64,000 nucleotides of DNA from Candidatus Brocadiia bacterium (GTDB lineage Bacteria; Planctomycetota; MHYJ01; JACQXL01), in the NCBI GenBank assembly GCA_041658285.1, contig JBBAAP010000011.1:3308-67307 (forward strand), written 5' to 3'. The notes under the pieces were generated by a model, which had not been told where the DNA came from, did no database searches, and saw only the letters and a program-made list of their open reading frames with translations. The position numbers were made by a program, and so were the translations under genes. How positions within the stretch are numbered: the first letter of the stretch is position 1; every line of letters begins with the position of its first letter. Positions 2,040 to 60,085 of this stretch are shown here, piece by piece.

Positions 2040-2110
2040 TAAAGCGGGATAACGTGCCAGTACGTCACTTTGTTCCTACTGGCACTAACCCCGCTAAAGC
2101 GGGATAAGAC
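2040..2110. repeat. composite hairpin element: two CCCGCTAAAGCGGG hairpins flanking a GTGCCAGTA-N-TACTGGCAC hairpin
   Basis: ccccgctaaagcgggataacgtgccagtacgtcactttgttcctactggcactaaccccgctaaagcgggataag. Related copies at 37845-37890, 35415-35460 and 60056-60085. Confidence 0.7.
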
Positions 2111-7937: not shown

Positions 7938-9119
7938 TTATTGGAAGATGGATAAAATTGCCCGTAAGGGCACTTTGTGTTTTTGTGCGGCTTTGCGGCA
8001 GTCTTCGTATTCAGGCACCAGTAATGTGGGTTTGCCCCGCATAAGTGCTGGACTGCCTGCGGGCTTGCCGTCCAATGAGCCGACCTTGCATCGAATGGGG
8101 CCGTAAGGGGTTTTGATGCTTCCAGCTTCGCGGTAAAGCTTGGTGCGTTGGACCTGGTAACGCCTGATGCCCAGGGTGGGTGTTTCGGCGAATATTATCC
8201 GTTCCATCCGGTTGACGTTGTCCGGGTCGCAGAGCACCTGGACCAGCGTGCCGGGCCGTGACTTTTTCATCTGGACTGGGATAGCCACCGCGTCCAGCGC
8301 GCCGGCCGCCAGTAATCGCTCCATCAGGTAGCCGATGACCTGGCCGGTGGCGTTGTCTATATTGGTTTCCAGCACCCAGGCCGTGTCCGAATCGGTTTTA
8401 GGCGCGGCTTCACCGATGAGCACCCGGAGCATATTGGGCTGGTTGGGTATTTCCGTCGTGCCGGCGCCGTAGCCGGCCCGTTCTATCTTCATATTAGGCA
8501 TTCGTTCGGCTGGGCGTCCCAGGGTGGTCAGTATGGCCGCGCCGGTGGGCGTGACCAGTTCGGACTGCAACGGGCTGCGGAATACCTCAAATCCTTTGAG
8601 GAGTTCCATGGCGGCCGGGCCGGGCACTGGATAGATGCCGTGATGGTTTTTGATGGTGCCGCCGGAAAGGGGCAAGGGCGACAGGTAAATCTTATCAATG
8701 CCCAATGATTCCATTCCCGAAACCGCGCCGGTGATGTCGACGATGGTGTCGATACTGCCCAGTTCGGCGAATTCTATGATTCCTTTGTGCGAGCCGTGAT
8801 GGACGCGCTTTTCGGCGGCCATCAGCCGGGCCATTATTTTCAGGCTGTCGGACTTGATACGGGAGCTGAGAGCGCTTCGCTTGATGATAGAGGTCATTTG
8901 GTTGTATGAAAGGTGCTTGTCGGCCGCGGCCAGGCTGAACCCGGTGCCCATCAGCCCGCAGCGTTCTGTCTTGGAGCGGCGGATTTTTATGGTCGGTTTT
9001 AGATGCAGTTTTTTCAGGGATTTCTGGAGTGCGGGAAAAGGCATCCCGGCGTCCAGAAGCGCGCCGATAATCATATCGCCGCTGGCGCCGGAGAAACAGT
9101 CGAAATATGCGATTTTCAT
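7938..9119 (-). CDS. larC: nickel-pincer cofactor biosynthesis protein LarC (DUF111 nickel insertion protein)
   Basis: 393 aa. N-terminus MKIAYFDCFSGASGDM is characteristic of LarC. No larB or larE in the window. Confidence 0.8.
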   Translation of the reverse strand: MKIAYFDCFSGASGDMIIGALLDAGMPFPALQKSLKKLHLKPTIKIRRSKTERCGLMGTGFSLAAADKHLSYNQMTSIIKRSALSSRIKSDSLKIMARLMAAEKRVHHGSHKGIIEFAELGSIDTIVDITGAVSGMESLGIDKIYLSPLPLSGGTIKNHHGIYPVPGPAAMELLKGFEVFRSPLQSELVTPTGAAILTTLGRPAERMPNMKIERAGYGAGTTEIPNQPNMLRVLIGEAAPKTDSDTAWVLETNIDNATGQVIGYLMERLLAAGALDAVAIPVQMKKSRPGTLVQVLCDPDNVNRMERIIFAETPTLGIRRYQVQRTKLYREAGSIKTPYGPIRCKVGSLDGKPAGSPALMRGKPTLLVPEYEDCRKAAQKHKVPLRAILSIFQ

Positions 9120-9261: not shown

Positions 9262-10443
9262 ATGTCTGTATTATTCGAGCCTGTCCGTATAAGCAATATC
9301 GAGGTCAAGAACCGGATAGTCCGTTCGGCCACGGCCGAGCGGATGGTGGATAAGGACGGCATCGCCACCGAACAGCTCGTAAAGCTCTACAAGATGTTGG
9401 CCGGCGGTGAAATCGGAACCATTATCACCGGTCATACTTCGGTTGATATCCGCGGCCGGGCCGGCTGGCAGATGACCTCGTTGGAAAGCGATGCGGCCAT
9501 CGGCCCGTTGAAACTTTTGACCGGTGCGGTGCATAAATACGAGTCCAGGATACTGGCCCAGATAAGTCACTGCGGCCGGTACGCGCCCGGAGCCATTATC
9601 GAACAGCGGCCTCTGGCCGTCTGTCTCGACCCCAACGAAGAACAGCGCGGGCAATACCCGCCTCAGGAAGCCGGTCCGGCTGATATCACGTATTTGATAA
9701 ATGCATTTGCCAACGCTGCGGTCCGGGCCCAGGAGGCCGGCTTCGACGGTATTCAGCTGCACTCAGCGCACGGATACCTGTGTTCCCAGTTTCTGTCGCC
9801 GCTGTTCAACCGGCGCACAGATGAATGGGGCGGTTCGGTTGAAAACAGGGCCAGGTTTTTGGTGGAGGTGGTAAAACTTATCAGGCATCGCACCGGGTCT
9901 GGTTTCGCCATCTGGGCCAAAATGAATTGTGAAGATTTCGTACTTCGGCAGTTGGAGCAAAGCGACTTACTGCCGAGTATGGTCGGCTGTAACTCATTAC
10001 ATTCTAACAGCCGATCCATCGAGGGCGGTATGACCGTGGAGGAAAGCATTGCCACGGCCAAGTTACTGAAAGCGGCCGGACTGGATGCTCTGGAGATAAG
10101 TGGGGGAGTCACATTTGATACGGTTATTCGCAAAGGAGTTCCGGACAAGGCGCCCGAGGCGTATTTCCTGGCCCAGGCCGAGCGGTTCCGGAAAGAGTTG
10201 CCTGGCTTCCCGCTGGCCCTGGTGGGCGGAATGCGTTCCTGCGCGGTGATGGAAAAAGTCGTTTCCGGCAAGGGCATCAACCTGGTCTCGATGAGCCGTC
10301 CGTTCATCATCAACCCGCAGTTCGCGCTGGAACTTAAGAAGGCGAAATCAACATCGACCTGCATTTCCTGCAACCTGTGCCTGGGCAAGAAGGGCGAGCC
10401 GGTCAAATGCCGGGCCTTGCCGAAAATACTTCCAATCGCTTAA
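9262..10443 (+). CDS. NADH:flavin oxidoreductase, Old Yellow Enzyme family, carrying a 27-aa in-frame insertion
   Basis: TIM-barrel OYE hallmarks (HSAHGYLCSQFLSP, RRTDEWGGSVENRARF). The expected ...EDF-VEGGMTVEES... junction is interrupted by LRQLEQSDLLPSMVGCNSLHSNSRSI. C-terminal CxxCxxC cluster. Confidence 0.8.
   Translation: MSVLFEPVRISNIEVKNRIVRSATAERMVDKDGIATEQLVKLYKMLAGGEIGTIITGHTSVDIRGRAGWQMTSLESDAAIGPLKLLTGAVHKYESRILAQISHCGRYAPGAIIEQRPLAVCLDPNEEQRGQYPPQEAGPADITYLINAFANAAVRAQEAGFDGIQLHSAHGYLCSQFLSPLFNRRTDEWGGSVENRARFLVEVVKLIRHRTGSGFAIWAKMNCEDFVLRQLEQSDLLPSMVGCNSLHSNSRSIEGGMTVEESIATAKLLKAAGLDALEISGGVTFDTVIRKGVPDKAPEAYFLAQAERFRKELPGFPLALVGGMRSCAVMEKVVSGKGINLVSMSRPFIINPQFALELKKAKSTSTCISCNLCLGKKGEPVKCRALPKILPIA
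9939..10019. mobile_element. 81-bp two-hairpin palindromic element (MITE/RPE-like) inserted in-frame within the OYE gene
   Basis: gtacttcggcagttggagcaaagcgacttactgccgagtatggtcggctgtaactcattacattctaacagccgatccatc. Hairpin 1 is TACTTCGGCAGT/ACTGCCGAGTA; hairpin 2 is TCGGCTGT-aactcattacattctaac-ACAGCCGA. About 45 bp are near-identical to 12120-12165 and 26 bp to 18342-18368. Length is a multiple of 3 with no in-frame stop. Confidence 0.7.
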
Positions 10444-10537
10444 GGTAAATAATATTCCTATTATTTCTTGACAATTATTTATATTAATATATAGCTATGC
10501 GTATATGCGAATATGATATTATATGAAGGAGTGATAA

Positions 10538-10891
10538 ATGGATAATATTACTGCTTTCGGCAAACTGATTTCGGACCAGACCCGCCTTAAAATTATCAAG
10601 CTTCTGTCGATCCGGCCGTTGTGCGTATGCGAGATGATGGATATTCTCCGCTTGAACCAGCCCTGTATCTCTCAGCACCTGGCTATCCTGAAATACCACA
10701 ACCTGCTCAAGTCGAGGCGCGATGGCAAGTGGATTGTTTACGCGGTGGATAAAAAGGTGCTTGGCCGATACCTGAATAAAATCAGCCATTTCCTGGAAGG
10801 TTCTATGAGCCACGTGGCAGAGTTACAGAAAGAGCATAAACGCCTGAAGGAACTTAAGAGTCGTGTGGTGCTATGCAAGAAGTGCAGGTAA
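10538..10891 (+). CDS. arsR: ArsR/SmtB-family metalloregulator
   Basis: 117 aa. HTH region LKIIKLLSIRPLCVCEMMDILRLNQPCISQHLAILK with the metal/arsenite-binding CVC motif. Confidence 0.85.
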   Translation: MDNITAFGKLISDQTRLKIIKLLSIRPLCVCEMMDILRLNQPCISQHLAILKYHNLLKSRRDGKWIVYAVDKKVLGRYLNKISHFLEGSMSHVAELQKEHKRLKELKSRVVLCKKCR

Positions 10892-10894
10892 ATT

Positions 10895-12061
10895 ATGAGT
10901 GAGCGCACTAAACTATTGCTGATACTGGCGATATTCCTGCTGTTTTATTTCGTGCCCTTTGGGCAGGTCCGGATGCAGAACGCGCTGATGGAGGCGTTTT
11001 ATATGCTCCAGGACTACGCCCGCCTGCACGTGATTCTGTGCCTGGTGCCGGCCTTCTTCATCGCCGGCGCGATTAGTAATTTTGTCAGCCAAGCCGCGGT
11101 GATGAAATACTTCGGGGCCAGGGCCAACAAGTTTCTGGCTTATTCGGTGGCTTCCGTTTCCGGCACAATCCTGGCCGTTTGCTCTTGCACAGTTTTGCCA
11201 ATCTTTGCAAGTATTTACCAGCGCGGGGCCGGTATCGGTCCGGCTACGGCTTTCCTTTATTCCGGTCCGGCCATAAATGTTTTGGCGATTATCCTGACCG
11301 CGCGGGTCTTAGGCCTGGAATTGGGAGTTACCCGGGCGGTTGGTGCAATTGCTTTCTCGGTCATTATCGGGTTATTGATGCATTTCATATTCCGCAAGGA
11401 AGAACTGAACAAGCAAAACAGTCAGGATATAGTGATTCCTGAAGAAGCCAAAGGAAGCCGTTCATTATTAAAGAATACCATCTACTTTGCCGTGATGTGC
11501 GGGATTTTGGTATTTGCCAATTGGGGGAAGGATGAGTCCATTCTATTATGGCAGAGTATTTATAATGTAAAGTGGTTCATCTCGGGCGGGTTAATAGTTA
11601 TCCTGGCATTTATCCTGACAAAATGGTTCCGCAGGAGTGAGCTGGGTTTCTGGGTGGATTCCAGCTGGGGATTTGCCAAGCAGATATTTCCTCTGCTTTT
11701 TGCCGGGGTATTTGTTTCGGGATTGCTGTTGGGTCGGCCCGGGCATCAGGCTCTTATCCCGAGCGAGTGGATTCAGTATTTGGTCGGTGGCAATAGCCTC
11801 TGGTCTAATTTCTTTGCTTCATTTGCCGGTGCGTTGATGTATTTTGCCACCCTGACCGAGATACCGATTCTGCAAGGATTAATCGGTTCCGGTATGGGCA
11901 AAGGTCCGGCTTTGGCGCTGTTGTTGGCCGGTCCGGCCCTGTCTTTGCCCAGTATGCTGGTCTTAAGGAGCATTATGGGCACCAAGAAGACGCTGGTTTA
12001 TGTCGGGCTGGTGGTGATAATGGCCACAATCACCGGAATGATTTACGGGGCGTGGATTTAG
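10895..12061 (+). CDS. COG0701-type permease (ArsP-like putative organoarsenical efflux permease)
   Basis: 388 aa, multi-TM. AVCSCTVLP resembles the ArsP TPFcSCS motif. Two-fold internal repeat (YSGPAINVLAI / LAGPALSLPSMLV). Immediately downstream of arsR. Confidence 0.65.
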   Translation: MSERTKLLLILAIFLLFYFVPFGQVRMQNALMEAFYMLQDYARLHVILCLVPAFFIAGAISNFVSQAAVMKYFGARANKFLAYSVASVSGTILAVCSCTVLPIFASIYQRGAGIGPATAFLYSGPAINVLAIILTARVLGLELGVTRAVGAIAFSVIIGLLMHFIFRKEELNKQNSQDIVIPEEAKGSRSLLKNTIYFAVMCGILVFANWGKDESILLWQSIYNVKWFISGGLIVILAFILTKWFRRSELGFWVDSSWGFAKQIFPLLFAGVFVSGLLLGRPGHQALIPSEWIQYLVGGNSLWSNFFASFAGALMYFATLTEIPILQGLIGSGMGKGPALALLLAGPALSLPSMLVLRSIMGTKKTLVYVGLVVIMATITGMIYGAWI

Positions 12062-12064
12062 TGA

Positions 12065-12168
12065 CGGTTCGAGTATAACGAGTTATACTCCAGCAGTTTG
12101 AACGTTAGTGAATTACTGCTGAGTATCCTCGGCTGATAACTCATTACATTCTAACAGCCGATGGACCG
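12065..12168. repeat. intergenic copy of the two-hairpin palindromic element family
   Basis: gagtataacgagttatactc palindrome, then tactccagcagt...actgctgagta, then tcggctgataactcattacattctaacagccgat. Near-identical to the in-frame copy at 9939-10019. Confidence 0.7.
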
Positions 12169-12310
12169 GCACCTTATCCAGTGTAAATCACAGTGGTAAT
12201 GATAGTTGTACTGGAGGCTAGGCTCTCCCGACTATTGAGCCGCAGCGAAATCCAGCACTTATGCAGGATTCCGTCGGGGTTAAGGTTACAGATAAACAAA
12301 AGGATTTAAA

Positions 12311-12868
12311 ATGCCTTACTTGAACGAGATAAAACTGGTTCAGACGATGCCCTGCATCGCAATGCCGGAGCGGATAAGGTTTGTGTCCGAGCTGGACCGC
12401 GATATTTCGGAGATGATGCCTTACATAAATGCAGTGGTGGAGGAGTCCATTTATAACCACGACGGTCCGTGCATTACTATGAAGCGTGATGGCCGGCTGA
12501 TAGGGGTCCAGCCGCGGCAGCTGGCGGCTGGCAAGGTAGTTGACCTAAAAGAAGCCACCGAGTTGATGGCTTGGTTTAAGGATGTGGTCAATGATTGCTA
12601 CAACCGGCGCGATTCAATTAAGCCGAACTATGAACGGCGCAACAAGCTTACACCGCTGGATGTCTATAAGCTTTTGCCTGGAACTAATTGCCAAAAGTGC
12701 GGACAGCCGTCCTGCCTGGCGTTCGGGGTGAAGGCGGCGGCTGAAGAAATCGGCATAATGAACTGTCCGGAACTATTTTCCGGCAGGTATGACGACAAGC
12801 GGAATTTGCTGGTCAAGCTGCTCAAATCGTGCGGTTACAGCGTTCCTGCGCCGTTTAGTGAAAAATAA
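12311..12868 (+). CDS. Cys-rich protein of unknown function, possibly Fe-S or zinc binding
   Basis: 185 aa with CQKCGQPSC...NCPELF and further Cys residues. Sits between the permease and the thioredoxin genes. Function not recognised. Confidence 0.4.
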   Translation: MPYLNEIKLVQTMPCIAMPERIRFVSELDRDISEMMPYINAVVEESIYNHDGPCITMKRDGRLIGVQPRQLAAGKVVDLKEATELMAWFKDVVNDCYNRRDSIKPNYERRNKLTPLDVYKLLPGTNCQKCGQPSCLAFGVKAAAEEIGIMNCPELFSGRYDDKRNLLVKLLKSCGYSVPAPFSEK

Positions 12869-12879
12869 AGGAGGTAGCT

Positions 12880-13128
12880 ATGAAGATAGAGATTTTGGGT
12901 ACCGGTTGCCCCAAGTGCAAGAAACTGACCGAGTTAACCAATGAAGTAGTTAAGGAATTGGGCGTTGAGGCAGAGGTGGTCAAGGTGGAAAAGATAACTG
13001 ACATAATGAAATACGGAGTGATGATGACCCCGGCGCTGGTTATAGACGGCCAGGTTAAGTCATCCGGCAAACTTCCCAGCAAAGCCGAGATTACCTCAAT
13101 TGTTACCACAGAACTATCAAAGCATTAA
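12880..13128 (+). CDS. small thioredoxin-fold protein (redox-active disulfide protein 2 type, CPKC active site)
   Basis: 82 aa. MKIEILGTGCPKCKKL... glutaredoxin/thioredoxin-like. RBS AAGGAGG upstream. Confidence 0.8.
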   Translation: MKIEILGTGCPKCKKLTELTNEVVKELGVEAEVVKVEKITDIMKYGVMMTPALVIDGQVKSSGKLPSKAEITSIVTTELSKH

Positions 13129-13149
13129 GATATAAAGAAAAGAGGTTGT

Positions 13150-13602
13150 ATGAGCTATGATAATAGGCGAAAACATTCTGCTGTAATCATTGTGTTTGTG
13201 TTGATTATTGCGGCTATCGCCGGCATAAAGTGCGATACTGAAGCCAAGCCGCCGGTTTCGGATAAGCCGGTTGTGATTGAGGTAAAAACGGCCGTTAATA
13301 ATCCTTTGGAGTCGGCGCTTAAGACCGGCCGTCCGGTGGTGGCTGATTTCGGCCGGGGCACCTGTATTCCCTGCAAGATGATGAAGCCGATACTGGATGA
13401 ACTGGCCGCGACGTATAAAGGCCGGGCGGAAATATTTATTTTTAGCATTGATGATTATCGGGACTTGACCGAGCAATACCGTATCCAGTTGATACCGACC
13501 CAGATATTCTTTGACAAGTCTGGTAAAGAGGTTTGGCGACACGAAGGGTTTTTGGATAAGGATAAAATTATTAGCAAGTTAGTTGAATTAGGTGTGAAAT
13601 AA
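13150..13602 (+). CDS. membrane-anchored thioredoxin (TlpA-like, CIPC active site)
   Basis: 150 aa. N-terminal TM anchor. GRGTCIPCKMMKP thioredoxin motif. Confidence 0.75.
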   Translation: MSYDNRRKHSAVIIVFVLIIAAIAGIKCDTEAKPPVSDKPVVIEVKTAVNNPLESALKTGRPVVADFGRGTCIPCKMMKPILDELAATYKGRAEIFIFSIDDYRDLTEQYRIQLIPTQIFFDKSGKEVWRHEGFLDKDKIISKLVELGVK

Positions 13603-14297
13603 TGATGCAGGAAGTATTTGCTAAATTAACGCAATGTTTTGATGCGGCGCCGTATATGGCTATCGTGGCGGCTTTTATCTGGGGTATCTTGAGCATTCTC
13701 TTGAGCCCGTGCCATTTAGCCAGCATCCCGCTTATCGTCGGGTTTATCAGCGGCCAGCGTGATAGCTCCGGGCGCAAGGCCTTTGGCTTGTCGCTTCTTT
13801 TCGCTACAGGTATCCTGATTACGGTTGGGATAATCGGACTGATTACAGCCGGTCTGGGCCGGATAGCCGGTGATGTCGAGCCGTATGGCAATTACCTGGT
13901 GGCCGTGATATTTTTCCTGGTTGGGTTGCATCTTGTCGGCGTCATACCGATGCCCTGGTCCGGTTTTTCCGGTCAGGGTAAGTGCAAGGGCTGGATGGCG
14001 GCGTTTTTATTGGGGTTAATCTTCGGCATTGCCCTGGGCCCCTGCACCTTTGCTTATATGGCGCCGGTCCTGGCTATGACATTTAAGATAGCGCCGACTA
14101 ATTTCGTATATGCGGCCGGATTGCTTTTGGCCTATGGGTTAGGCCACTGTTCTGTTATCGTGGCTGCCGGGACCAGTTCCGGGATGGTGCAATCGTATTT
14201 AAATTGGAGCGAGTCATCCAAGGCGACGATGATTATTAAAAAGATATGCGGGATACTCGTTATCCTGGGCGGGCTTTATTTGATATGGATTGCTTGA
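13602..14297 (+). CDS. ccdA: cytochrome c biogenesis / thiol-disulfide transporter CcdA (DsbD transmembrane domain family)
   Basis: 231 aa. [11 protein letters not shown] and ALGPCTFAY conserved Cys-containing TM motifs. Confidence 0.8.
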
Positions 14298-14319
14298 TTG
14301 TACGGGAAGGAGTAACATT

Positions 14320-15360
14320 ATGAGTAATGGCACGACTAAAAGGTTATCATTTTTAGACCGTTTCCTGACGCTCTGGATATTCCTGGCTATGGGCATCGGC
14401 GTGGCTATGGGGTATTTTATCCCTTCTATTGTCCAGTTCTGGGACCAGTTCAATTCAGGCACGACCAATATCCCCATTGCCATCGGGTTAATCCTGATGA
14501 TGTATCCGCCGCTGGCCAAGGTCAAATACGAGGAACTGGGCGATGTATTCAAAAATGTCAAGGTGCTTCTGCTGTCGTTGGTCCAGAACTGGATAATCGG
14601 TCCTATCCTGATGTTCGCGCTGGCTGTCATATTCCTGCCGGACAAGCCGGAGTATATGGTTGGCCTGATAATGATAGGCCTGGCTCGGTGCATCGCCATG
14701 GTCATAGTTTGGAACGAACTGGCCAAAGGCGACAGCGAATACGCCGCGGCGCTGGTGGCTTTCAATTCCATATTTCAGGTGCTGTTCTTCTCGGTCTACG
14801 CCTGGGTTTTTATCACCATACTGCCGGGCTGGTTCGGACTAAAAGGCATCGAGGTGAATATCACCATTGGGCAGATTGCCAAGAGCGTTTTTATATATCT
14901 GGGCATACCGTTCCTGGCCGGGATGATTACCAGATTCACTTTGATAAAACTTGTTAATAAAGATTGGTATCAGACAAAATTCATCCCGCGCATCAGTCCG
15001 ATTACCCTGATAGCCTTGCTGTTTACGATTATCGTGATGTTCTCCCTGAAAGGGGAGTATATCGTCAAGATACCGCTGGACGTGGTCCGGATTGCCATCC
15101 CTCTGCTTATATACTTTGTAGTTATGTTCCTGGTATCGTTCTATATGGGCCGGAAGGTAGGGGCCGATTATTCCAAGACCGTGACGCTGTCATTCACGGC
15201 GGCCAGTAACAACTTTGAGCTGGCCATAGCCGTAGCCGTGGCTGTGTTCGGGATAAACTCCGGAGCTGCCTTCGCCGCCGTTATAGGCCCGCTGGTCGAG
15301 GTGCCGGTGATGATAGGGCTGGTCAACGTGGCGTTCTGGTTTCAGAGAAAATATTATTAG
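14320..15360 (+). CDS. acr3: arsenite efflux transporter ACR3
   Basis: Start re-called at ATG 14320, after a GGAAGGAG RBS (the ORF track starts at 14290). [24 protein letters not shown] and the overall 10-TM pattern match ACR3 (BART superfamily). Confidence 0.8.
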
Positions 15361-16117: not shown

Positions 16118-16222
16118 GGGGTAAGGGACATCATTATGTACTATAAATGAATTAATTGGCGCCAGAGGTGTTTCGCAGTGCAGCCTGCCTTGCCGTCAGG
16201 CAGGGGTAATCAACGATTCATA

Positions 16223-16430
16223 GCATGCTGGGGAAGATTTGCAGCATGCTGGGGAAGATTTGCAGCATGCAGGGGAAGATTTTCAGCACGCTGAGGAAGT
16301 TTTCAAGCATGCTGGGAAAGTTTTCAAGCACGCTGGGGAAGATTTACAGCATGATGGGGAATATTTACAGCATGCTCGGAATGGTTTATAGCACGCTCGG
16401 AATGGTTTATAGCACGCTCGGGAACGATTC
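16223..16430. repeat. direct tandem array, about 10 copies of a 21-bp unit (GCATGCTGGGGAAGATTTGCA and variants)
   Basis: Visible by eye. The 78-aa ORF in the track (MLGKICSMLGKICSM...) is simply the translation of this repeat. Confidence 0.85.
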
Positions 16431-16560: not shown

Positions 16561-16650
16561 ACGCGGAATCAGGAGGGTAGGGATAGGGTATGGGGAGGGG
16601 GTAGATACCCTACTCAGACGTAGGGGGTACGGTTATCGTATACCCCCATT
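16561..16650. repeat. G-run/C-run palindromes (gggtatggggagggggtagataccctac; gggggtacggttatcgtataccccc)
   Basis: Same architectural element as at 1537-1577, 2421-2455 and 53812-53852. Directly precedes a tandem array. Confidence 0.65.
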
Positions 16651-16885
16651 TGGTAAATATAGGTATACGGCTTGGTAAATCAAGGCTCACGGCTTGGCAA
16701 ATAGAGGTATACGGCTTAGTAAATCCAGGCGCACGGCTTGGTAAATAGAGGTATACGGCTTAGTAAATCCAGGTGCACGGCTTGGTAAATAGAGCTATAC
16801 GGTTTAGTAAATCCAGGTGCACGGCTTGGCAAATAGAGCTATACGGTTTAGTAAATCCAGGCGCACGACTTGGCAAATACTGGAG
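16651..16885. repeat. direct tandem array, about 10 copies of a 22-bp unit (alternating GGCTTGGTAAATAGAGGTATAC / GGCTTAGTAAATCCAGGTGCAC)
   Basis: 44-bp super-period, visible by eye. Confidence 0.85.
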
Positions 16886-18332: not shown

Positions 18333-18337
18333 TTATA

Positions 18338-18372
18338 CTTCGGCAGTTGATGCAAAGCGACAGCATCTTTTC
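18338..18372. repeat. partial copy (hairpin-1 half) of the two-hairpin palindromic element
   Basis: tacttcggcagttgatgcaaagcgac differs by 2 nt from 9942-9967. An additional taactcgttatactc fragment at 18489-18503 matches the 12085-12105 palindrome. Confidence 0.55.
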
Positions 18373-18410: not shown

Positions 18411-21400
18411 ATGAAACCAGCTGATATTCATAATCCCGCTCCGCTGCGCTTCGGGGATAAGGTCCTTTCAGGAGGCTGCGCACTGCCACTAACTCGTTAT
18501 ACTCGAAGTGGCACTAAACCGGGTATTGCACTGGTGATGGTGCTTTTGGTCCTGCTGGTTCTGATGTTCCTGGGCATACCGTTTGTCGCCTCGATGCTTC
18601 TTAAAGAGAAAACTAATAAGAATTCGCTGTTTTTGGCCAAGAGCCGCATTGCTGCGGTCAGCGCCCGCAATTATGCCATCGCTTCGCTCGTTCGTGGATG
18701 CCTGAGCGAGGAACGTAAGGATACGGCGCTTGACCCGTTCAATACCCCGGATTATGACGTCGGAGTCGAGTTTGCCTCGAGGGAGATGACTTATACCGAT
18801 GTGGCTGACCCCAAGGGTGTTATCTGGTCCACCCGGGTAATCGATGAACAATCCAAGATTAATATCGGAGAAATCGCCAAGGCGGCTGAAAACCATCATA
18901 CCTTGATGAATAACCTGATTTCCCAGATGAAGCCGGCCGACAAGCTGGATGATTACATTACCGAGCACAGTTACCGCGCCACGCCCTGGGTGGACGCGCA
19001 GATGTTGGGCGGATATATGCTATACCAGGATTATAAAGATATCATGCGCACGGCGCTTTACCTGAAGAATTCATATTGGTACAGCGAGACCGGCGTCCGG
19101 GTCCGGTTGACTGCCGGTAACAGGGAGTTTATCTCTACGGCCAGTTACCAGCCCTGCGGACAGGGGCTTTGCCTTGATGCTAATTCCATTAAGGTTGTTC
19201 CGCTGGAATACAGTCCGCATATACAACACCCGCATAAAAAGCCGCCTTTCCCTTTGAATCAAGAAATATGGCGGACCGTAGCGGCCGGAGGATACACCTG
19301 GCTTTACATTGACCGAAACGTGCCGCCAGAGTTCCTGACGCCGGATACTATTTTCGAGGTGGAACAGCCGCACGCGGTGAATATAAACACCGCACCCAAG
19401 GAATTGGTCACGGCCTTATTGTGGGAATTGGGCCGGCGGTATTATGACCCGATTTTTAGCAGGCAGGTTGACGAGCGCATCAGTCTGGGCCAGGCCCAGA
19501 TGCTGGCCACAATGATAAAATCACGTGACTTCGCTAATCCAACCGACTGGCTGGGTTTCCTGCTCGATGTCAATGACAGCCGGATTATCACGGGGACGCA
19601 CGTATCGGCCTTGTGGACTAATTCGCGCCATCCCCGGTCATCGGCTTTTTACGATATTATCGACGAGCGGTTTACCGGGACATTGCCGTTCTGCTACCGC
19701 AGTTATGATACCTATAATATTAAGTCCACCGGCGTGGTTAATTATCCTTCAGGGTTGGAAGCGGCTCGGACGGTATTCAATGATATTGTGGAAGTTGCTC
19801 CGGCCCAGACTGCTACATTCCTTCTTGAGTCGCAATACGATTTTGATGAACAGTTTAATATGTTGTTGGGTAACCCCAGGCGATTCAGCACATTTCCTAA
19901 CGTATCTACTTTAAGGGTGGATAATTACATTGTCGGTTCGACTGAATACGTTGAGCCGGATTATTTGCGTTCAACCCAGCCGGAGATTGGGGAACTAAAG
20001 CTGAAGACGGCTGAAGATGACCGGGGAATAGACGTGATTTATAAGGATTCTTTTGAAGACACCCAGGAAGGGGAGCAGTTGGCCGGGACAGCTTTGACCT
20101 ATCAGAGCGATGATACGTTTGTTTTTCCGCCGGACCCGGCGAATAAGCCGGATATTTATCCGGGCGGAATCGAGCTCTGGGTGAAATTTTCTGCCAGCCC
20201 GTCGGGGTATATCGCTGATATTCGCCAGAGCGAATACGAGAACCGGATAAGCATTTCTTACGAGAATAACGAGTTGATATTGACGGTTTGTGACGCGGGC
20301 ATAGAGCGAAAATCGGCGCGGGTGGTGGCGCCGGTACAGTTGAGGGAAAATATCTGGTATCACATCGGCGCTTATTTTGAAGGCACCAAGCATTCCGGAT
20401 TGGCTTTATTCCTGGACGGCAAACCGGTGGGCAGTTTTGCTCACTACGACGATATGGACCGGGCTATTATTACGGAGTTGATGGCTGATGTGCCGGATAC
20501 GGTTACAGTCGCACCCGGGACTGACCTGATAATTCCGGTTAAGGATACCTCTTGTTTCCCGGGATCCGGTGTTATCCAGGTTGGAGAAGAAGCCATTGAA
20601 TATTCCGAAATCGTCGGCGGCGGGTTCAAAGTCCCGGTTTTTTGGAATATGTCGAATACCCCTCCGACTCCGGTGGGGAACGGCCGGGGACAGCGCGGCA
20701 CGGTGCTTATGGCGCATCCGGCCGGCGCTAAGGTAACGCCCTTTGGCTATTCTAACTTATTCGTCAGCAATGTTGATGTAACTGGTCCCGGTTTTCCTGC
20801 ACCGGTCCGGATAGATTATCAGCCCCTGCCGAAAGGCGGCGCTACTTTAGTTGAAAGCATTCTTGACACCTTGCCGCAGACAACTATTAACTGGCCTTTA
20901 GGTATTGATGCGGCAGATACGGTTATTACCGTTACTTCGGTAACTAATTTTCCTAATGAGGGATACGTCAGGCTGGGCAATAATGAAGTTATTTTTTATT
21001 TAGGTAAGGATGACAACTCCAAAACGCTGTTGAATTGCCGACGCGGTTTGTTGGGCACTGTCGGCCGTGACCACAGCAGCGGCGAGGCCGTGGATATGTA
21101 TTCCATAAAGGTCTCCGACAATACCGAATATCCGTCGCCGGGTATGATTCAGATTGACGACGAATGGATAGGGTTGGTCCAGAAAGGGGAAACGCCCGAA
21201 TACTTTACAGGCGTGGTTAACGGTACTACTCCGGTTGATTTTATGAGAGGTGTCTACGGACAAAGGACGCCTCATATGTCCGGAGCCTTGATTATTCCGG
21301 TGCTGGCGGCTGATGAACCTACTTGCGGCAAGGGCGATGTGGTGACTATTGTCGAAGATGACCATGTGACTGACAGCAAAGAAATGAAAACCATCCGTAA

Positions 21401-22532
21401 CGCAATGCGTTACAATGACGCGCAGACCGGAGAACCGAAATGTTTGCTGGCTTTTTTTGATAATCTTAGCAGGAATTATGATGTTGACGGAATAACAAGG
21501 ATGCTTAAATTTCCTTCGGATGAACTGCCTTCTTACTTGCCGGGCAATTTTTATATCGGCGGGGATGAGGCAGGTGGGTCTATACTGGGAATGGTGGATG
21601 AATTAAAGTGCTACAGCGGGGACCAGATAAATCGCCCGCTTTCGGACACATTGTATTCCGATACGCACAATGACCGGATCAGGGTACTGAATCTTAATGG
21701 CATGTCACCTTCAGGCGGGGTTATCAAAATAGGGGATGAGATTATCGGGTATGGCGGTATCGATTACCTGGCCGGCGAAATTACCGGGTGCGTACGCGGA
21801 TATCTCAATTCTACGCCGCAAACGCACGACTATCGGGAGAGGATATTCTATATTCCTTATTTGCCGGTGGCTGCATTAAAAAATAATCTTAGCCCGACTG
21901 ATTTTTCCGTGCCGGTCAGTACTATGAATGGTTTTTCGACGGACGCGGCTTATTTGTTGGTTGGTAATGACTTCAGCCAATCGGAGATGATCGGGTATCT
22001 TTGGCGAGATACCGGTAATGGACAGTTTCTGATGCCTTCTGATCGGACCGGTACGGGAATGTTCCGGGGGGCATTTGGGACTCCGGTTGGTTCATTTATA
22101 CAGGGGACGCTGGTTTACGCCATGCCGTTCCGTTACTGGCATTTGGAAAAACGCCAGGCGTTTCATCATGAAATGGCCTATTTCCATACGGCTCATTTTT
22201 CACGGGATGCCACATGGCAGAAGGTGCGCTGGACTGAGCGGCACGATCCGGCAGACGATGGGCTGGTCCAGTGGAGATTCTTAGTTCGGTTTGATAGCGG
22301 GCCGCACTGGGCCGATACGCCAACGAACCGCAAGGACGGTTTGTTTGAGTTCTTTTCACGGAATAGGGAGCAGGTTCTTAACATCGTTGCTAACCAGATA
22401 GAACTGCTGGCATTTGTCCAGTACCAGCCTGGCGCATTTCTTACGGATTCCTGGAAACGCGCCCCAGCTTTGACTAATCTATACATTGATTATTCTAAAC
22501 CTTCAGATATTATTTCCCACCAGGAAGAATAA
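18411..22532 (+). CDS. giant GspK-like pseudopilin N-terminus fused to a LamG/ConA-like adhesin-type extracellular region
   Basis: 1373 aa. N-terminal KPGIALVMVLLVLLVLMFLGIPF hydrophobic segment resembles GspK/PilX-type minor pseudopilins and lacks a classical G-FTLIE motif. A central segment (ELWVKFSASPSGYIADIR...WYHIGAYFEGTKHSGLALFLDGKPVG) looks like a laminin-G/concanavalin lectin fold. Exact start codon uncertain. Confidence 0.55.
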   Translation: MKPADIHNPAPLRFGDKVLSGGCALPLTRYTRSGTKPGIALVMVLLVLLVLMFLGIPFVASMLLKEKTNKNSLFLAKSRIAAVSARNYAIASLVRGCLSEERKDTALDPFNTPDYDVGVEFASREMTYTDVADPKGVIWSTRVIDEQSKINIGEIAKAAENHHTLMNNLISQMKPADKLDDYITEHSYRATPWVDAQMLGGYMLYQDYKDIMRTALYLKNSYWYSETGVRVRLTAGNREFISTASYQPCGQGLCLDANSIKVVPLEYSPHIQHPHKKPPFPLNQEIWRTVAAGGYTWLYIDRNVPPEFLTPDTIFEVEQPHAVNINTAPKELVTALLWELGRRYYDPIFSRQVDERISLGQAQMLATMIKSRDFANPTDWLGFLLDVNDSRIITGTHVSALWTNSRHPRSSAFYDIIDERFTGTLPFCYRSYDTYNIKSTGVVNYPSGLEAARTVFNDIVEVAPAQTATFLLESQYDFDEQFNMLLGNPRRFSTFPNVSTLRVDNYIVGSTEYVEPDYLRSTQPEIGELKLKTAEDDRGIDVIYKDSFEDTQEGEQLAGTALTYQSDDTFVFPPDPANKPDIYPGGIELWVKFSASPSGYIADIRQSEYENRISISYENNELILTVCDAGIERKSARVVAPVQLRENIWYHIGAYFEGTKHSGLALFLDGKPVGSFAHYDDMDRAIITELMADVPDTVTVAPGTDLIIPVKDTSCFPGSGVIQVGEEAIEYSEIVGGGFKVPVFWNMSNTPPTPVGNGRGQRGTVLMAHPAGAKVTPFGYSNLFVSNVDVTGPGFPAPVRIDYQPLPKGGATLVESILDTLPQTTINWPLGIDAADTVITVTSVTNFPNEGYVRLGNNEVIFYLGKDDNSKTLLNCRRGLLGTVGRDHSSGEAVDMYSIKVSDNTEYPSPGMIQIDDEWIGLVQKGETPEYFTGVVNGTTPVDFMRGVYGQRTPHMSGALIIPVLAADEPTCGKGDVVTIVEDDHVTDSKEMKTIRNAMRYNDAQTGEPKCLLAFFDNLSRNYDVDGITRMLKFPSDELPSYLPGNFYIGGDEAGGSILGMVDELKCYSGDQINRPLSDTLYSDTHNDRIRVLNLNGMSPSGGVIKIGDEIIGYGGIDYLAGEITGCVRGYLNSTPQTHDYRERIFYIPYLPVAALKNNLSPTDFSVPVSTMNGFSTDAAYLLVGNDFSQSEMIGYLWRDTGNGQFLMPSDRTGTGMFRGAFGTPVGSFIQGTLVYAMPFRYWHLEKRQAFHHEMAYFHTAHFSRDATWQKVRWTERHDPADDGLVQWRFLVRFDSGPHWADTPTNRKDGLFEFFSRNREQVLNIVANQIELLAFVQYQPGAFLTDSWKRAPALTNLYIDYSKPSDIISHQEE

Positions 22533-36199: not shown

Positions 36200-36460
36200 T
36201 CAAACTGCTCCAATGTCTCATAGGACTGCTCCAATCCTATGTCAAATTATTATAATTGCTCATAGGACTGCTCTAATCCTATGACAAATCACTCCAACAT
36301 CTCACAGGATTGTTCAAATCCCTCAAGGGATTACTATAATCCCTCGCAGGATTACCACAATCCCTTGAAGGACTACTATAATCCTTTATCGGATTGCTAT
36401 AATCCCTCATAGGATTGCTAAAATCCTTCAAAGAATCACCATAATTATGTGAATATTATA
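36200..36460. repeat. degenerate direct tandem array (about 22-bp unit, ATAATCCCTCATAGGATTGCT-like, about 11 copies)
   Basis: Visible by eye. Units contain the internal palindrome TCCTATG/CATAGGA. Confidence 0.75.
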
Positions 36461-37844: not shown

Positions 37845-37890
37845 AGTCGGGATAACGTGCCAGTAATTCATTTCGTTCAAACTGGCACTA
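37845..37890. repeat. GGGATAACGTGCCAGTA-N20-ACTGGCACTAACC hairpin element
   Basis: Near-identical to 2055-2098. Loop sequence matches the hairpin at 60056-60085. Confidence 0.65.
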
Positions 37891-37982
37891 ACCGTCGCTG
37901 GCGGAGAATATGAGCCATATTAGTTGCCTTCCAAGCTTATAATAGGGTAGTATACTTTCAGGTTTGGTCAATATAATATAAT

Positions 37983-53444: not shown

Positions 53445-53570
53445 TTTATTTCGACGGTCAAGCGAGACACCTGCCTGCGGCGCACAGGCAGAGACCAGAG
53501 CCTACCGGCTCGCATGTTATTCCACCATCAACACTTCGAGAAATATTAATATTCCCCCATTCCCATACCT

Positions 53571-53710
53571 TCCCCGGGTAGTATGGGTAACTTCCCCCGG
53601 TAGTATAGGCAACCTCTCCGGGTAGTATAGGTAACCTCCCCGCCTAGTATAGGTAACTACCCCCGGTAGTATAGGTAATATCCCCCCGTAGTATAGGTAA
53701 TATCCCCGTG
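53571..53710. repeat. direct tandem array, about 6 copies of a 22-bp unit (CCCGGTAGTATAGGTAACCTCC-like)
   Basis: Visible by eye. Confidence 0.8.
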
Positions 53711-53811: not shown

Positions 53812-53852
53812 GAGGGGGGGGGAGATACCTACCCCCCTCCCCCCTAACCTCT
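53812..53852. repeat. G-run/C-run palindrome (GGGGGGGGGAGATACCTACCCCCCTCCCCCC)
   Basis: Homologous in type and position to 2421-2455. Confidence 0.7.
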
Positions 53853-53859
53853 ACTTCCT

Positions 53860-54478
53860 ATATCTATAACCCCTATATAGAGTATGGATAACTCCCATAG
53901 GTGGTGTCAGTAATTCCCATAGGCGGTATAGATAACCTCTATGAGGTGTGTGAATTACTGCTATAGTGAGTACTAATAATTCCCATAGGCGATATCAATA
54001 ACCCCTGTAAGGGGTGTGGATGACTACTATGGGACATCTGGGTAATACCTATAAGCAGTATCGATAATCCCTATAGGATATGTTGTAAACTGGTATTAGG
54101 TGTATCGAAAACTGGGACTAGGCATATCGAAAACGGGGATAGATGATATCGGAAACGGGGATAGGGTGTATCGGAAACCGGGACTAGGCATATCGAAAAC
54201 GGGGATAGATGATATCGGAAACGGGGATAGGTGATATCTAAAACGGGGATAGGGTGTATCGAAAACGGGTAATAGGTGTATCGAAAACGGGGATAGGGTG
54301 TATCGAAAACCGGTAGTGGGTGTGTCGAAAATGGGGATTGGGCGTATCGAAAACCGGGGCTAGGTGTATCGAAAACGGGGATAGGTGATATCTAAAATGG
54401 GGATAGGTGATATCGAAAACGGGGATTGAGCGTATCGAAAACCGGTAGCGGGTGTATCGAAAACCCATACTACCATCA
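53860..54478. repeat. direct tandem array, about 28 copies of a 22-bp unit (TATCGATAAC...TATAGG grading into TATCGAAAACGGGGATAGGGTG)
   Basis: Strict 22-bp phase throughout. The first ~12 units are about 90% identical to 2460-2725. The spurious minus-strand 76-aa ORF at 54238-54468 lies within this array. Confidence 0.9.
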
Positions 54479-54516: not shown

Positions 54517-57342
54517 CTACTTCGGAAGCGGCACATCCGGCGCTAACTGCTTGACCTTGGTTGCCATATCCGCGGCCTCTTTGAGCCGGCCTTTTAACCT
54601 GTAGAAGTTCATCAGGTTATAATAGCCCAGATAGTCGTTGGGCTTATACTTTACGAGCATCTGGTTGGTGCGCTCGAACATTAGCTCCTGGTTGGGGTCG
54701 CGCATTACTTCCTGCCCGCTCTTGTGCACTAAAGCGGCCTTATAATAGTTTTCCACCGCTTCGTTGATTTTACCCTGGTCTAGGTAGATGTCGCCCAGAT
54801 GGGCGAAGGTCTCGGAGAATTCGGGGTCTATCCGGGCGGCCGCCTGGTATCGCTCGATGGCATTGGCCAGGTCGCGCTGTTCGTAATAGGTCTCGCCCCA
54901 TTCGTTCATCAGCGAGGGGTTGTGCGGGCTGAGCTTGCAGGCGGCCCAGTAATACTTGTGCGATTGGTCGTAGCGCTCCTGCCGCTCGGCCGGATTGTTT
55001 GCCGCCTGCGCCCAGACCCGGTAGAACCTGCCGATGTTGGCGTTGCGGGTGGGGCTGAGCCGTTCGTATTCGATGGACTTCATCAGGTACTTGTTGCATT
55101 CGGCCAGCAGTTCGGCCCGCTTGCGGGCGTCTTTTTCGATGTAGTATTTTTCCAGGTAGACCCGGGCGATGGACGCGGCGTAGTAGCTGTTGTCCATCGA
55201 ATGCTTGACCGCCTCCTGGTAGTGGTAAAGGACCGTGTCCCATTGCCGGGACTTCTCGTGCGACACGCCTATCTTATAGAGGATGTTGCCCCGGATGGGG
55301 TCGATGTTGGTATAGAATATGAATATCAGCCCGGCCAGGATGCCGACGACAGAGATGCCAATCGTGGACGACTTTATGAATGTTGCGCCGGATGTTTGTC
55401 CCGGCAGCGCCCAGGCCAGGGTGATGATGCCTATCAGGAGCCAGACGCTCAGGAAGGTGATGGTGTCTATGGGCGAATTGAACGGCGGCAGGAACGAGAA
55501 GAGTATGAATACGAATATGCCGGCGCCGACAGCCGCGCCGATGGCGGCCGTGATAATCGAGCCCAGCTTGGCTCCGATCGTGAAATACCAGACCGTAGCC
55601 AACGCCAGCCAGCTCAGGCCGAGCAGTACAATCGCCCGGGTTATCGGGCCGGAGGTCTCAACCGAGTACTGGAAGAAGAACAGGTCAAAGGCGAAGAGGG
55701 AGAGAATCAGGACCAGAATAATGATGAATGTCCCTCGGGAATACTCGGGATAAATTGAATTATGGGTGCTGAATGATGGATTAATATTGCTGCTTTTTTC
55801 TTGCGGAGTTTGTTCATTCTGCATTCCGAATTCTACATTCCGAATTAGGACGGCCAGGAATATCCAGAAATATGTCCGCGAGGCGGTCAGGTCGATGCCG
55901 AACTGTGTCTCGACGAAGTGGCCGATGATAGCGCTGAAAATCCCGATTTGCCAAATAGGTACTGAGAGTTTATTATCTATGATCTCCGTGTGCTCAGTGC
56001 CTCTGCGGCTAACTAAATAATAGAAAAGGTAGAGCACGGCGCCCATGACCAGTCCGATGGGTACGCCGATGGAGGAATAGATGAACGAGCCTTGGACCAG
56101 GTGCGGGATGGCCAGCCCGCTCAGTCCGCCCAGGGCCAGTAAGATTATCAGAATCAGTGACTGGGGCTTGGACGCAACCAGTTTGAGATACCGGAAGAAC
56201 CAGAAGATAATCCCGGCGAAGAGGAGCAGGTAGAGCGTTGCGCCTATGAGCCCGTTGGTGATGAGCGTGTCGAAGAGCTCGTTATGCGCCCGGTCAGGGA
56301 AGGCTATCTTATGCTCGCTGCGCACCAGCTCGGGCGGAGCATATTTGTGGTAGGGAATGAACATATTCTCCGGCCCGTAGCCGACCAGCGCCCGGTTGGT
56401 GTCGGACCTGGCCATATTGGTGACGCCTTCCCAGATGAGCAGCCTGACTTTGGCGGCCGGCTCTTTGGATTCGAATATCTGGCCGAACCGGCCGAACATC
56501 GGCTTGATGCCGGACAGCGGCGAGTTGGGCACGTTGAGCAACAGCAGGAACCCGACCAGCAGACCGGCTCCGGCATAGGTAACATAGGCCAGCCATTTCC
56601 GGCCGTAGACGGCGGCGCTTAAGGTGATAAAGAAGAACAGCCCGGTCATCAGGCCCAGGAACGGGCCGCGGCTCTGGGTCAGCCACAGGCTGAGCATTTG
56701 CAGGACCAATAATGCGGCCAGGACGATATGCCTGGCTCGGATGGGTAGTCTGAACTCGTAGAGCAGACTGGCTATTGTCACGGGGATGACCATAATCAGG
56801 TAAGAGCCCAGGAAGATGGGGTTGCCCAGGGTCGAGCCGATACGGCGCGAGAAGTCGGTGTCCCAGGTGAGCGGGTCGAGCTTGAGCTTCTGGGCGAAGC
56901 CGTATAATATTATGGGGATGCTGGTCAGGAGCACGGCGGTGATGATGCGTTTTATTTGTTCGGCGGACTTGAGCGATGACAGGGTAATGATGAATACGAC
57001 GAAATAGCCCAGCAGGGTGTAGGTTCCCTGTCCGCGTGAGTAGCTTCCCCACCAGCTGGTATGGAAGGCCACGCCGATGATGCTGGAAAACAGGTAGCTG
57101 GCGAAGAGCAATATGGCCGTGACGGGGATGAAACCGCGCCAGGCGGAGTCGCCGGGGCCGGACTCGGCCCGCCTGATGGCGTAGGCCGCCAGCATAATCA
57201 CGGCGATGGAGCGGATCAGGGTGCTTTTGTCCGGGTCGAATACGGTGTTAGAATGGTAGTTAAAGAAGAGCGGAGCGATTATCAGGGCCAGCAGCCAGCA
57301 GGCCTCGATGACCTTGTCGCAGAATAAGCCGACCTTAGACAT
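54517..57342 (-). CDS. O-antigen ligase/polymerase-like multi-TM protein fused to C-terminal TPR repeats
   Basis: 941 aa. More than 10 TM segments with a Wzy_C-like RGPFLGLMTGLFFF region. The C-terminal third is TPR (repeated AxxYxxLG patterns). Confidence 0.6.
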   Translation of the reverse strand: MSKVGLFCDKVIEACWLLALIIAPLFFNYHSNTVFDPDKSTLIRSIAVIMLAAYAIRRAESGPGDSAWRGFIPVTAILLFASYLFSSIIGVAFHTSWWGSYSRGQGTYTLLGYFVVFIITLSSLKSAEQIKRIITAVLLTSIPIILYGFAQKLKLDPLTWDTDFSRRIGSTLGNPIFLGSYLIMVIPVTIASLLYEFRLPIRARHIVLAALLVLQMLSLWLTQSRGPFLGLMTGLFFFITLSAAVYGRKWLAYVTYAGAGLLVGFLLLLNVPNSPLSGIKPMFGRFGQIFESKEPAAKVRLLIWEGVTNMARSDTNRALVGYGPENMFIPYHKYAPPELVRSEHKIAFPDRAHNELFDTLITNGLIGATLYLLLFAGIIFWFFRYLKLVASKPQSLILIILLALGGLSGLAIPHLVQGSFIYSSIGVPIGLVMGAVLYLFYYLVSRRGTEHTEIIDNKLSVPIWQIGIFSAIIGHFVETQFGIDLTASRTYFWIFLAVLIRNVEFGMQNEQTPQEKSSNINPSFSTHNSIYPEYSRGTFIIILVLILSLFAFDLFFFQYSVETSGPITRAIVLLGLSWLALATVWYFTIGAKLGSIITAAIGAAVGAGIFVFILFSFLPPFNSPIDTITFLSVWLLIGIITLAWALPGQTSGATFIKSSTIGISVVGILAGLIFIFYTNIDPIRGNILYKIGVSHEKSRQWDTVLYHYQEAVKHSMDNSYYAASIARVYLEKYYIEKDARKRAELLAECNKYLMKSIEYERLSPTRNANIGRFYRVWAQAANNPAERQERYDQSHKYYWAACKLSPHNPSLMNEWGETYYEQRDLANAIERYQAAARIDPEFSETFAHLGDIYLDQGKINEAVENYYKAALVHKSGQEVMRDPNQELMFERTNQMLVKYKPNDYLGYYNLMNFYRLKGRLKEAADMATKVKQLAPDVPLPK

Positions 57343-60005: not shown

Positions 60006-60055
60006 AATTTCTTTCCGATCCTTCTGCGCCATCGGCGCCATCAGGATCTAACTGC

Positions 60056-60085
60056 CGGTAATTCACTTCGTTCAAACCGGCAGTA
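60056..60085. repeat. hairpin CTGCCGGTAATTCACTTCGTTCAAACCGGCAG immediately 3' of tRNA-Gly
   Basis: Loop is identical in sequence to the 37860-37880 element. Possible tRNA 3' processing or terminator structure. Confidence 0.5.

Follow-up and report, generated by a model that had tools for sequence, protein, structure and literature searches.

What is a palindromic repeat doing, in frame, in the middle of a gene for a conserved enzyme? The question arises in a 64,000-nt stretch of a Candidatus Brocadiia metagenome-assembled genome (MAG; GCA_041658285.1, contig JBBAAP010000011.1, positions 3,308 to 67,307; hereafter the window), where a sequence-only reading had noticed, within a gene of the Old Yellow Enzyme (OYE) family, an 81-nt segment of two hairpins that encodes 27 residues. 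The segment is indeed a palindromic in-frame insert, missing as a clean gap from the orthologues at two other loci (L002 and L003); measured against these empty sites, however, the indel comprises 78 nt and 26 codons. Very probably, the OYE gene received one 78-nt non-autonomous repeat by a single insertion, in the common ancestor of the window genome and a sister MAG. The insert and its host lie at the following window positions.

9262 to 10443, plus strand: OYE-family gene of 393 aa, host of the insert (open reading frame and Pfam PF00724)
9940 to 10017, plus strand: A-B unit of 78 nt, in frame, residues 227-252 (VLRQLEQSDLLPSMVGCNSLHSNSRS), defined by the 26-codon gap in L002 and L003
9940 to 9980, plus strand: hairpin A, GTAC-T-TCGGCAG / 18-nt loop TTGGAGCAAAGCGACTTA / CTGCCGA-GTAT, with a bulged T (fold, and covariation over 24 copies)
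9981 to 10017, plus strand: hairpin B, GG-TCGGCTG / loop TAACTCATTACATTCTAA / CAGCCGA-T-CC

The insertion in the OYE gene

The host open reading frame matches PF00724 (Oxidored_FMN, E 1e-58) in two separate stretches. In alignments with solved OYEs, the query jumps from residue 226 to 254-255 where the target (7fev) moves on by one residue, which leaves about 26-27 residues extra. An AlphaFold2 model of the product (mean pLDDT 82, pTM 0.86) is a confident TIM barrel, with OYE structures as its top Foldseek matches (TM 0.75-0.88), and the residues of the active-site motif HxxHGY (H167, H170, G171 and Y172) are invariant across the homologue alignment. Model and motif alike point to an FMN-binding TIM barrel with HxxH(G)Y, the hallmark of the OYE family. 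In the model, the insert leaves the barrel on the catalytic (C-terminal) face, after strand 216-222 and before helix 259-272, and insert residues 229-249 have pLDDT values below 50. The insertion would add 26 predicted residues to the loop that follows strand 216-222, with LLPSMVGCNSLHSNSR as a peptide from this predicted loop.

A homologue search covering 5.8 billion proteins showed that the window protein (P0001) is identical to a protein from a Candidatus Brocadiia bacterium MAG. Its nearest relative is P0002 (86% identical), encoded at the OYE locus (L001) of the sister MAG, GCA_043808305.1; P0003 and P0004 follow at 71-73%, and many others at 60% or less. The segment is confined to P0001 and P0002; in its place, P0003 and P0004 have a clean gap of 26 residues, and 22 of the 25 aligned homologues, including those at the syntenic L002 and L003, have no extra residues at the site. 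Because all four loci share the gene order LarC-OYE-ArsR-ArsP-FeS-Trx (thioredoxin-like), their OYE genes are true orthologues, and their filled and empty sites can be set side by side (^ marks the empty position).

Window, filled site: GAT TTC [GTA CTT ... CGA TCC] ATC GAG
L002, empty site: GAT TTT ^ ATA CAA
L003, empty site: GAT TTC ^ ATA CAG

Against L003, blastn leaves a gap of exactly 78 nt on the window side and 0 nt on the other. The insert falls between the Phe codon of a conserved N-C-E-D-F motif and the following Ile codon; its boundary is ambiguous by one A, and 9941-10018 is equally valid. The frame is preserved, as had been claimed: the length is a multiple of 3 and, since this 78-nt variant has no stop in that frame, the segment is read through. 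Translational bypass or removal of the segment is unlikely, given that it is in frame and stop-free and has no matching take-off and landing codons. We propose that the non-autonomous repeat would have entered the gene in the common ancestor of the window MAG and GCA_043808305.1, after their lineage split from those of L002 and L003.

Two other origins were weighed against this one. Repeats can in general mislead assemblers, and this one could have been joined wrongly into the gene; such a chimera is barely conceivable, because the same insertion occupies the same position in the independently assembled L001, which excludes an assembly artefact. The window protein is moreover on record from four sources, and the junctions are in frame with the orthologous gene continuing on both flanks. 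It is also highly improbable that the 26-residue loop is ancestral to the OYE and was lost in its relatives, with the intergenic copies as gene fragments. Some other orthologues do have insertions at or near this loop, but the 22 homologues without extra residues include the syntenic ones, the dozens of dispersed copies carry no other OYE sequence, and the insertion found at this site in a more distant homologue (P0008, below) is a different type of unit.

Outside the insert, the window and sister OYE genes differ with a nonsynonymous rate (dN) of 0.069 and a synonymous rate (dS) of 0.84. At a dN/dS of ~0.08, the insert-bearing gene stays under purifying selection in both lineages and has remained functional while carrying the insert.

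The OYE gene also heads an arsenic-type cluster (window 9262-15360) that encodes ArsR, an ArsP permease, an FeS protein, thioredoxin-like proteins, DsbD and an ACR3/SBF transporter, in an order kept in three other lineages. Near the C-terminus of the OYE, a four-Cys motif (C367, C370, C373 and C383) is invariant and suggests an Fe-S site comparable to the one in dienoyl-CoA reductase.

Repeat units and their turnover

Folding of the insert as RNA yields the two hairpins named in the sequence-only reading, with a minimum free energy of -34.5 kcal/mol; shuffled sequences average -19.2 (z = -4.8), and none of 200 folds as well. Each hairpin of an A-B unit has a 7-bp stem, a short extension with a bulged T and a conserved 18-nt loop. 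In the family, hairpin A reads ATAC-T-(7 bp) / 18-19-nt loop TTTGAGCGTTAGCGAATTA / (7 bp)-GTAT, and hairpin B reads CC-(7 bp) / loop TAACTCATTACATTCTAA / (7 bp)-T-GG; the base of hairpin B is GG..CC in the OYE insert and CC..GG in all other copies. On the minus strand, hairpin B is itself an A-type hairpin with loop TTAGAATGTAATGAGTTA, following the pattern of a 7-bp stem with loop TTnGAn..GAnTTA. A second type of unit, A'-B', reads TTAGTGCCAG / TTyGARCGnAAyGARTTA / CTGGCAC GTTATCCCG-n-CGGG, and a loop consensus is common to both types. For hairpin B, the alignment to A and A' improves when these are inverted: A scores +4 against reverse-complemented B and -6 on the same strand. The similarity is modest, and the ends are loosely inverted repeats. 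Since B on the other strand fits the A pattern, the unit is a doublet of inverted homologous hairpins.

Stem pairing in the family is held by compensatory change, without strand asymmetry. Over 24 copies, the stem cells comprise 442 Watson-Crick (96%), 8 G:T and 9 mismatched ones, and 11 of the 20 stem pairs show two or three Watson-Crick types, counts that come from an alignment fitted to the model and thus biased towards structure.

Within the window, blastn aligned 9941-10015 with 12086-12162 (83% over 77 nt, E 6e-15; 92% over a 50-nt core) and 9941-9966 with 18336-18361 (92% over 26 nt); the motif searches for the repeat had an expectation of zero chance matches. An intergenic copy had been described at ~12.1 kb as near-verbatim, and the copy is real although it is only 83% identical overall. 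The partial copy described at ~18.3 kb likewise exists, as a truncated first hairpin only. The window copies beside the insert are as follows.

12085 to 12165, plus strand: A-B unit in intergenic DNA, with 83% identity to the OYE copy, sitting within the loop of an outer A'-type unit
12058 to 12084, plus strand: 5' half of that outer A'-type unit, TTAGTGACGG with loop TTCGAGTATAACGAGTTA
12166 to 12179: 3' half of the outer unit, after the inner one, CCGGCAC CTTATCC
18336 to 18361, plus strand: truncated copy, 5' arm and loop of hairpin A only, 92% over 26 nt
37848 to 37893, minus strand: uninterrupted A'-type unit, TTAGTGCCAG / TTTGAACGAAATGAATTA / CTGGCAC GTTATCCCG
60043 to 60088, minus strand: A'-type hairpin without interruption, flanked by a tRNA (60091-60162) and an M23 peptidase gene
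2045 to 2090, minus strand: diverged hairpin unit of A' type, next to a 22-nt tandem array

The outer A' unit begins with TTAG at the end of the ArsP gene and supplies its stop codon (TAG, 12059-12061); elsewhere ArsP ends in CTA TAA (L001) or TTT TAA (L003). A further A'-type hairpin (18483-18514, GTGCCAC/TTCGAGTATAACGAGTTA/GTGGCAG) with a trailing TTATCCCC module, read in the minus-strand sense, occupies window 18430-18520. It falls within the first 35 codons of a predicted 1373-aa open reading frame (18411-22532), whose true start probably lies downstream, near a transmembrane segment.

The element had been taken for a dispersed and recently active one, and both points are borne out. An exact scan for the 21-nt loop of the second hairpin across 185,579 species genomes (one each) gave 13 sites, every one of them in the sister MAG. 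A covariance model derived from 10 copies, to which the OYE copy scores 104 bits, located ~28 distinct places in 178 kb (the window and the fetched loci), including one copy in L002, the lineage with an empty OYE site. With a degenerate junction pattern, the JGI/ENA metagenome collection yielded 7 more contigs, which originate from Hainich aquifer samples and from the JGI samples Ga0265292, Ga0315284 and Ga0307377. Among the DNA searched, the family is restricted to a few groundwater and sediment Planctomycetota.

Intergenic copies turn over quickly. Against 250 nt in the window, the ArsP-FeS spacer is 42 nt long at L001 and 27 nt at L003, both without a unit, and the unit at 60043-60088 is absent from the orthologous tRNA-peptidase spacer of the sister genome. 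That the sister lacks both of these units (12085 and 60043) at the orthologous positions indicates recent turnover. Non-orthologous copies of the two genomes are nevertheless ~96% identical, against ~81% for genes: the A-B unit of the OYE gene is 96% identical to the intergenic sister copy L012:7408-7480, and the 12085-12165 unit is 96% identical to the non-orthologous sister copy L017:5617-5714.

Only ~3 of roughly 35 copies lie in coding sequence. Units are 78-82 nt long; other copies measure 79-80 nt, and only 78-nt variants are able to keep the frame. Relative to neighbouring genes, ~16 copies are co-oriented and 6 opposed, a difference that is not significant. At the gathering threshold, Rfam matched only two tRNAs in the whole window, and nothing at E <= 1 over 9850-12300; the unit thus belongs to no known RNA family. 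The insert had no blastn match among PLSDB plasmids or INPHARED phages and no pattern match in IMG/VR.

The occupied codon boundary and the copy shared with the sister genome

The codon boundary that is filled in the window is filled elsewhere too. P0008, a 52%-identical OYE homologue from MAG GCA_043801445.1, carries an 81-nt A'-B' unit at the same boundary, with junctions GAC TTT^TTAGAGCCAG...GTCGGGA^ATG GAA; the unit is related to units of the sister genome (E 1e-6). Since a different type of unit is involved, the insertion in P0008 is an independent event, which makes GAY-TTY a hotspot.

One observation weighs against a single ancestral insertion. A segment that predates the split of the two MAGs should have decayed synonymously, yet its dS is 0 whereas that of the rest of the gene is 0.84. 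In this segment the sister orthologue agrees with the window in residues and in nucleotides alike, which is not the outcome that the sequence-only reading had named as refuting it; 76 of 78 nt and all 26 third positions are identical, and both of the two differences are non-synonymous. The 26-codon blocks on either side have dS values of 2.6 and 1.1. Among 4,346 sliding 26-codon windows from 17 orthologue pairs, 26 of 26 identical third positions occur over the insert alone.

Such a pattern would be expected if the window and sister lineages had been hit separately, after their split, by near-identical units at a hotspot. Parallel recent insertion would account for the contrast in dS with the flanking blocks and for the singular run of third positions, and it gains from the independent hit on the same boundary in P0008, the fast turnover of intergenic copies and the ~96% identity of non-orthologous copies across the two genomes. 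We nonetheless consider it unlikely. Both OYE copies have the compensatory swap of GG..CC for CC..GG, which is found in none of the ~35 others and argues for a single ancestral insertion; the boundaries are identical, the 78-nt subfamily is the same, and one ancestral event is more parsimonious than two.

If the insertion was a single ancestral event, a constraint at the nucleotide level is needed to explain the absent decay. Compatible with that origin, and possible though doubtful, is exaptation of the OYE copy as a nucleic-acid element under nucleotide-level purifying selection, as an mRNA or single-stranded DNA structure or a sequence-specific protein-binding site; the copy would then be more than tolerated. 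The 26 codons without synonymous change are the most conserved synonymous stretch among ~5,000 compared codons, and the overall identity of the insert is matched only by the tRNA gene and by short stretches of the ArsP and ACR3 genes. The GG..CC swap keeps pairing, which suggests that the hairpin has been selected in the OYE copy, and the loops of the family are conserved between genomes. Selection on structure alone, however, would permit loop and compensatory changes, and none is seen; there is no Rfam match or known function, other intergenic copies are freely gained and lost, and the argument comes from one pairwise comparison.

Insertion rules, other proteins and known elements

Comparison of filled and empty hairpins places one unit at the 3' loop edge of another (...GARTTA^[TAC......GATGGA]^CTGCC...), while the filled and empty OYE sites read GATTTY^[unit]^ATM. 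Junctions contain one ambiguous A and no target-site duplication; a duplication of TA or longer is ruled out by the same comparison. Immediately 5' of 16 of 24 copies lies RRTT, against at most one weak match with the motif in the opposite orientation. Inserts are also found at the mirror position in hairpin B, right after CGGCTG (L010, L015 and L019), which is the same site on the other strand. Nested sets reach three deep (L014, L009 and L021).

These junctions show that members of the family insert in a single orientation, without duplication, directly 3' of RRTT(A), and most often in another unit's loop. As RRTT(A) is the 3' end of their own hairpin loop, copies nest; in the OYE gene, the GAY-TTY of the E-D-F codons partly mimics the motif. 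Four features (polarity, absence of duplication, covariation confined to Watson-Crick pairs and the bulged T) suggest, by analogy, recognition of single-stranded DNA, and we infer that the folding strand is DNA, not RNA. Folded single strands would be recognised by an enzyme acting in trans, which might be an HUH/Y1-type transposase of the IS200/IS605 or RAYT kind, an assignment that we regard as rather doubtful. Tentatively, the whole would amount to a self-targeting single-stranded DNA system whose signal is mimicked by GAY-TTY codons, so that the same protein loops are remodelled repeatedly across lineages, with at least the OYE copy under nucleotide-level purifying selection as a working RNA or DNA structure inside a coding sequence.

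Several results weigh against this proposal. The open reading frames of the window and L001-L018 contain no HUH..Y regex match, and Pfam identified no transposase among ~50 open reading frames in the window or near copies, only housekeeping or metabolic genes. The DNA sampled for a transposase amounts to ~260 kb, a fraction of each genome; since none was found in it, the mobilising enzyme is one that we purely infer. At the OYE gene, the left flank (GATTTC / GATTGC) fits RRTT^A loosely. A hairpin loop as the OYE target was rejected: the empty L002 and L003 sites fold no better than shuffles (z +1.1 and -0.5), so loop targeting cannot explain the OYE insertion.

Between A-type hairpins and inverted ones at spacings of 0.25-3.5 kb lie ordinary genes; the pairs that flank 1-3.5 kb contain those for acyl-CoA dehydrogenase, MgsA and a Ser/Thr kinase, and no full-length element was found in the sampled DNA. 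An integron attC-like site was also rejected, as the GTTRRRY core and a cassette context are absent.

The sequence-only reading had held that the element can remodel proteins, and this is upheld by the low dN/dS of the OYE gene with its insert, by P0008 and by two further proteins. In a GH106-like gene (L021, contig Ga0265292_1000191, gene 3-1421), an in-frame nested set of 168 nt (~406-573, reverse orientation), composed of one A-B unit inside another together with a mini hairpin, extends the protein by 56 residues behind HGMPF; GH106 homologues with 82-85% identity lack them. The last ~30 residues (...SELLPPILGSKSGAKAPSNCRSIG...) of a Fic/DOC-domain protein in the sister genome (L014 5490-6224, minus strand) are encoded by the element in the same frame as the OYE insert. 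Other lineage-specific insertions in the OYE alignment form strong hairpins or repeats, namely in P0013 (123 nt), P0006 (114 and 36 nt) and P0002 at L001 (30 nt). Altogether, the OYE family has received at least 7 independent in-frame insertions, from several hairpin families, at four sites; the 16 window-sister orthologue pairs contain five further indels of at least 5 aa.

Additional insertions were seen in the same set of genes and their neighbours. The 30-nt hairpin insertion of the sister OYE (L001 6380-6409, in frame, ARPGEQGEAG) is absent from the window gene, and P0006 and P0021 have different insertions at its alignment position. P0122, a close GH106 homologue, has several other lineage-specific insertions. 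The LarC gene (7938-9119) contains a 33-nt in-frame hairpin insertion (8037-8069, minus strand; 11 aa, GKPAGSPALMR), one of the five indels just counted, that the L001 and L003 orthologues lack, and a relative of this hairpin, a 20-mer with 3 mismatches, lies in the ArsP-FeS spacer (12248-12267). A Wzy_C/TPR protein of the sister (L026 4673-7624; window counterpart 54517-57342) has insertions of 11 and 19 aa with GC hairpin modules, GTCCCG..CGGGAC and TCCCGCC AAG GGCGGGA TAAAC, the second resembling in kind the modules that nest within the repeat arrays. Taken together, the hairpin insertions in OYEs, LarC, Wzy_C, GH106 and Fic suggest that many lineage-specific loops in this clade may be repeat-derived.

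[quoted passage not shown] RPEs are short dispersed palindromic repeats found in frame in unrelated genes, where the fold tolerates the peptide segment (PMC10969869). The window family resembles them in lying in frame in the window OYE, the P0008 OYE and GH106. RPEs are ~100-150 bp long, belong to obligate intracellular Alphaproteobacteria and have a large share of intragenic copies; the window family, by contrast, has units of 78-82 nt that nest and lie mostly outside coding sequence, in free-living Planctomycetota of groundwater and sediment. Its host is a Candidatus Brocadiia bacterium and not a member of the Rickettsiales, and the exact loop 21-mer occurs in a single one of the 185,579 species genomes, a Planctomycetota MAG; similarity in sequence to RPEs would not be expected. 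The earlier view of an unrelated lineage and an unrelated element family agrees with this host and with the lack of Rfam, plasmid, phage and IMG/VR matches.

REPs are imperfect palindromes, mostly extragenic and at times intragenic (PMC3733652). Unlike them, the window family has no GTAG/CGTC tag, its feet reading ATAC...GTAT, CC...GG and TTAG...GTTA; its loops are long (18 nt) and conserved, insertion occurs exactly at the 3' end of another unit's loop, and no RAYT gene is present in the ~260 kb sampled. A REPIN is conceived as two inverted hairpin modules that move as one unit. The inverted hairpin doublet, the mosaic clustering, the lack of target duplication and the compensatory stem changes of the window family are all REP- or REPIN-like.

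IS200/IS605 elements and palindrome-associated transposable elements (PATEs) have hairpins at both ends in place of simple terminal inverted repeats, imperfect palindromes that are recognised as folded single strands, and insert without target duplication, oriented 3' of a short sequence (PMC3201880, PMC5027513, PMC5934647). Like PATEs, the window family shows no target duplication and one orientation 3' of RRTT, and its unit has two distinct imperfect end hairpins, each with a bulged T. No TnpA or TnpB, as in IS200/IS605, was found in the sampled DNA. In IS608, the hairpins are subterminal, the cleavage sites lie some distance away and the target is TTAC, whereas the hairpins of the window unit reach its very ends and the flank is RRTT(A).

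Classical MITEs have terminal inverted repeats and a target duplication made by a DDE transposase, for example TA for Correia; no such duplication is present at the junctions of the window family. Bacterial MITEs (Correia/NEMIS, ERIC and Coxiella QMITEs) are small non-autonomous repeats that can give in-frame fusions or altered gene ends (PMC10969869, PMC5896051). In its behaviour, the window family comes closest to a REPIN or to a miniature element of the IS200/IS605 type; the family itself is new, its kind (RPE-, REP- or PATE-like) already known. A literature search for nested small dispersed repeats gave nothing useful.

The same outcome as in Rickettsia is seen in free-living, uncultured Planctomycetota. 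In Rickettsia, in-frame 'selfish DNA in genes' is best documented and is usually tied to the reductive evolution of an intracellular parasite. Repeat-derived loops bear on annotation, alignment-based phylogeny and structure prediction for the MAGs of this clade. The filled and empty sites, the strict polarity, the lack of duplication and the nesting form a clean data set for the transposition mechanism and its enzyme. Further interest lies in the self-nesting at a precise loop position, the repeated hits on one protein loop and the shared copy without synonymous change, the last being a testable sign that inserted repeats can gain sequence-level function in genes.

Many intergenic tandem arrays also lie in the window where open reading frames are absent; their period is 21 or 22 nt (42, 44 and 66 occur as well), they reach 18 copies, and the unit sequence differs from one array to the next (1593-1999, 2472-2922, 16215-16429, 16650-16879, 36208-36445, 53569-53708 and 54087-54464). 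Window segments 2427-2726 and 53816-54115 are 89% identical.

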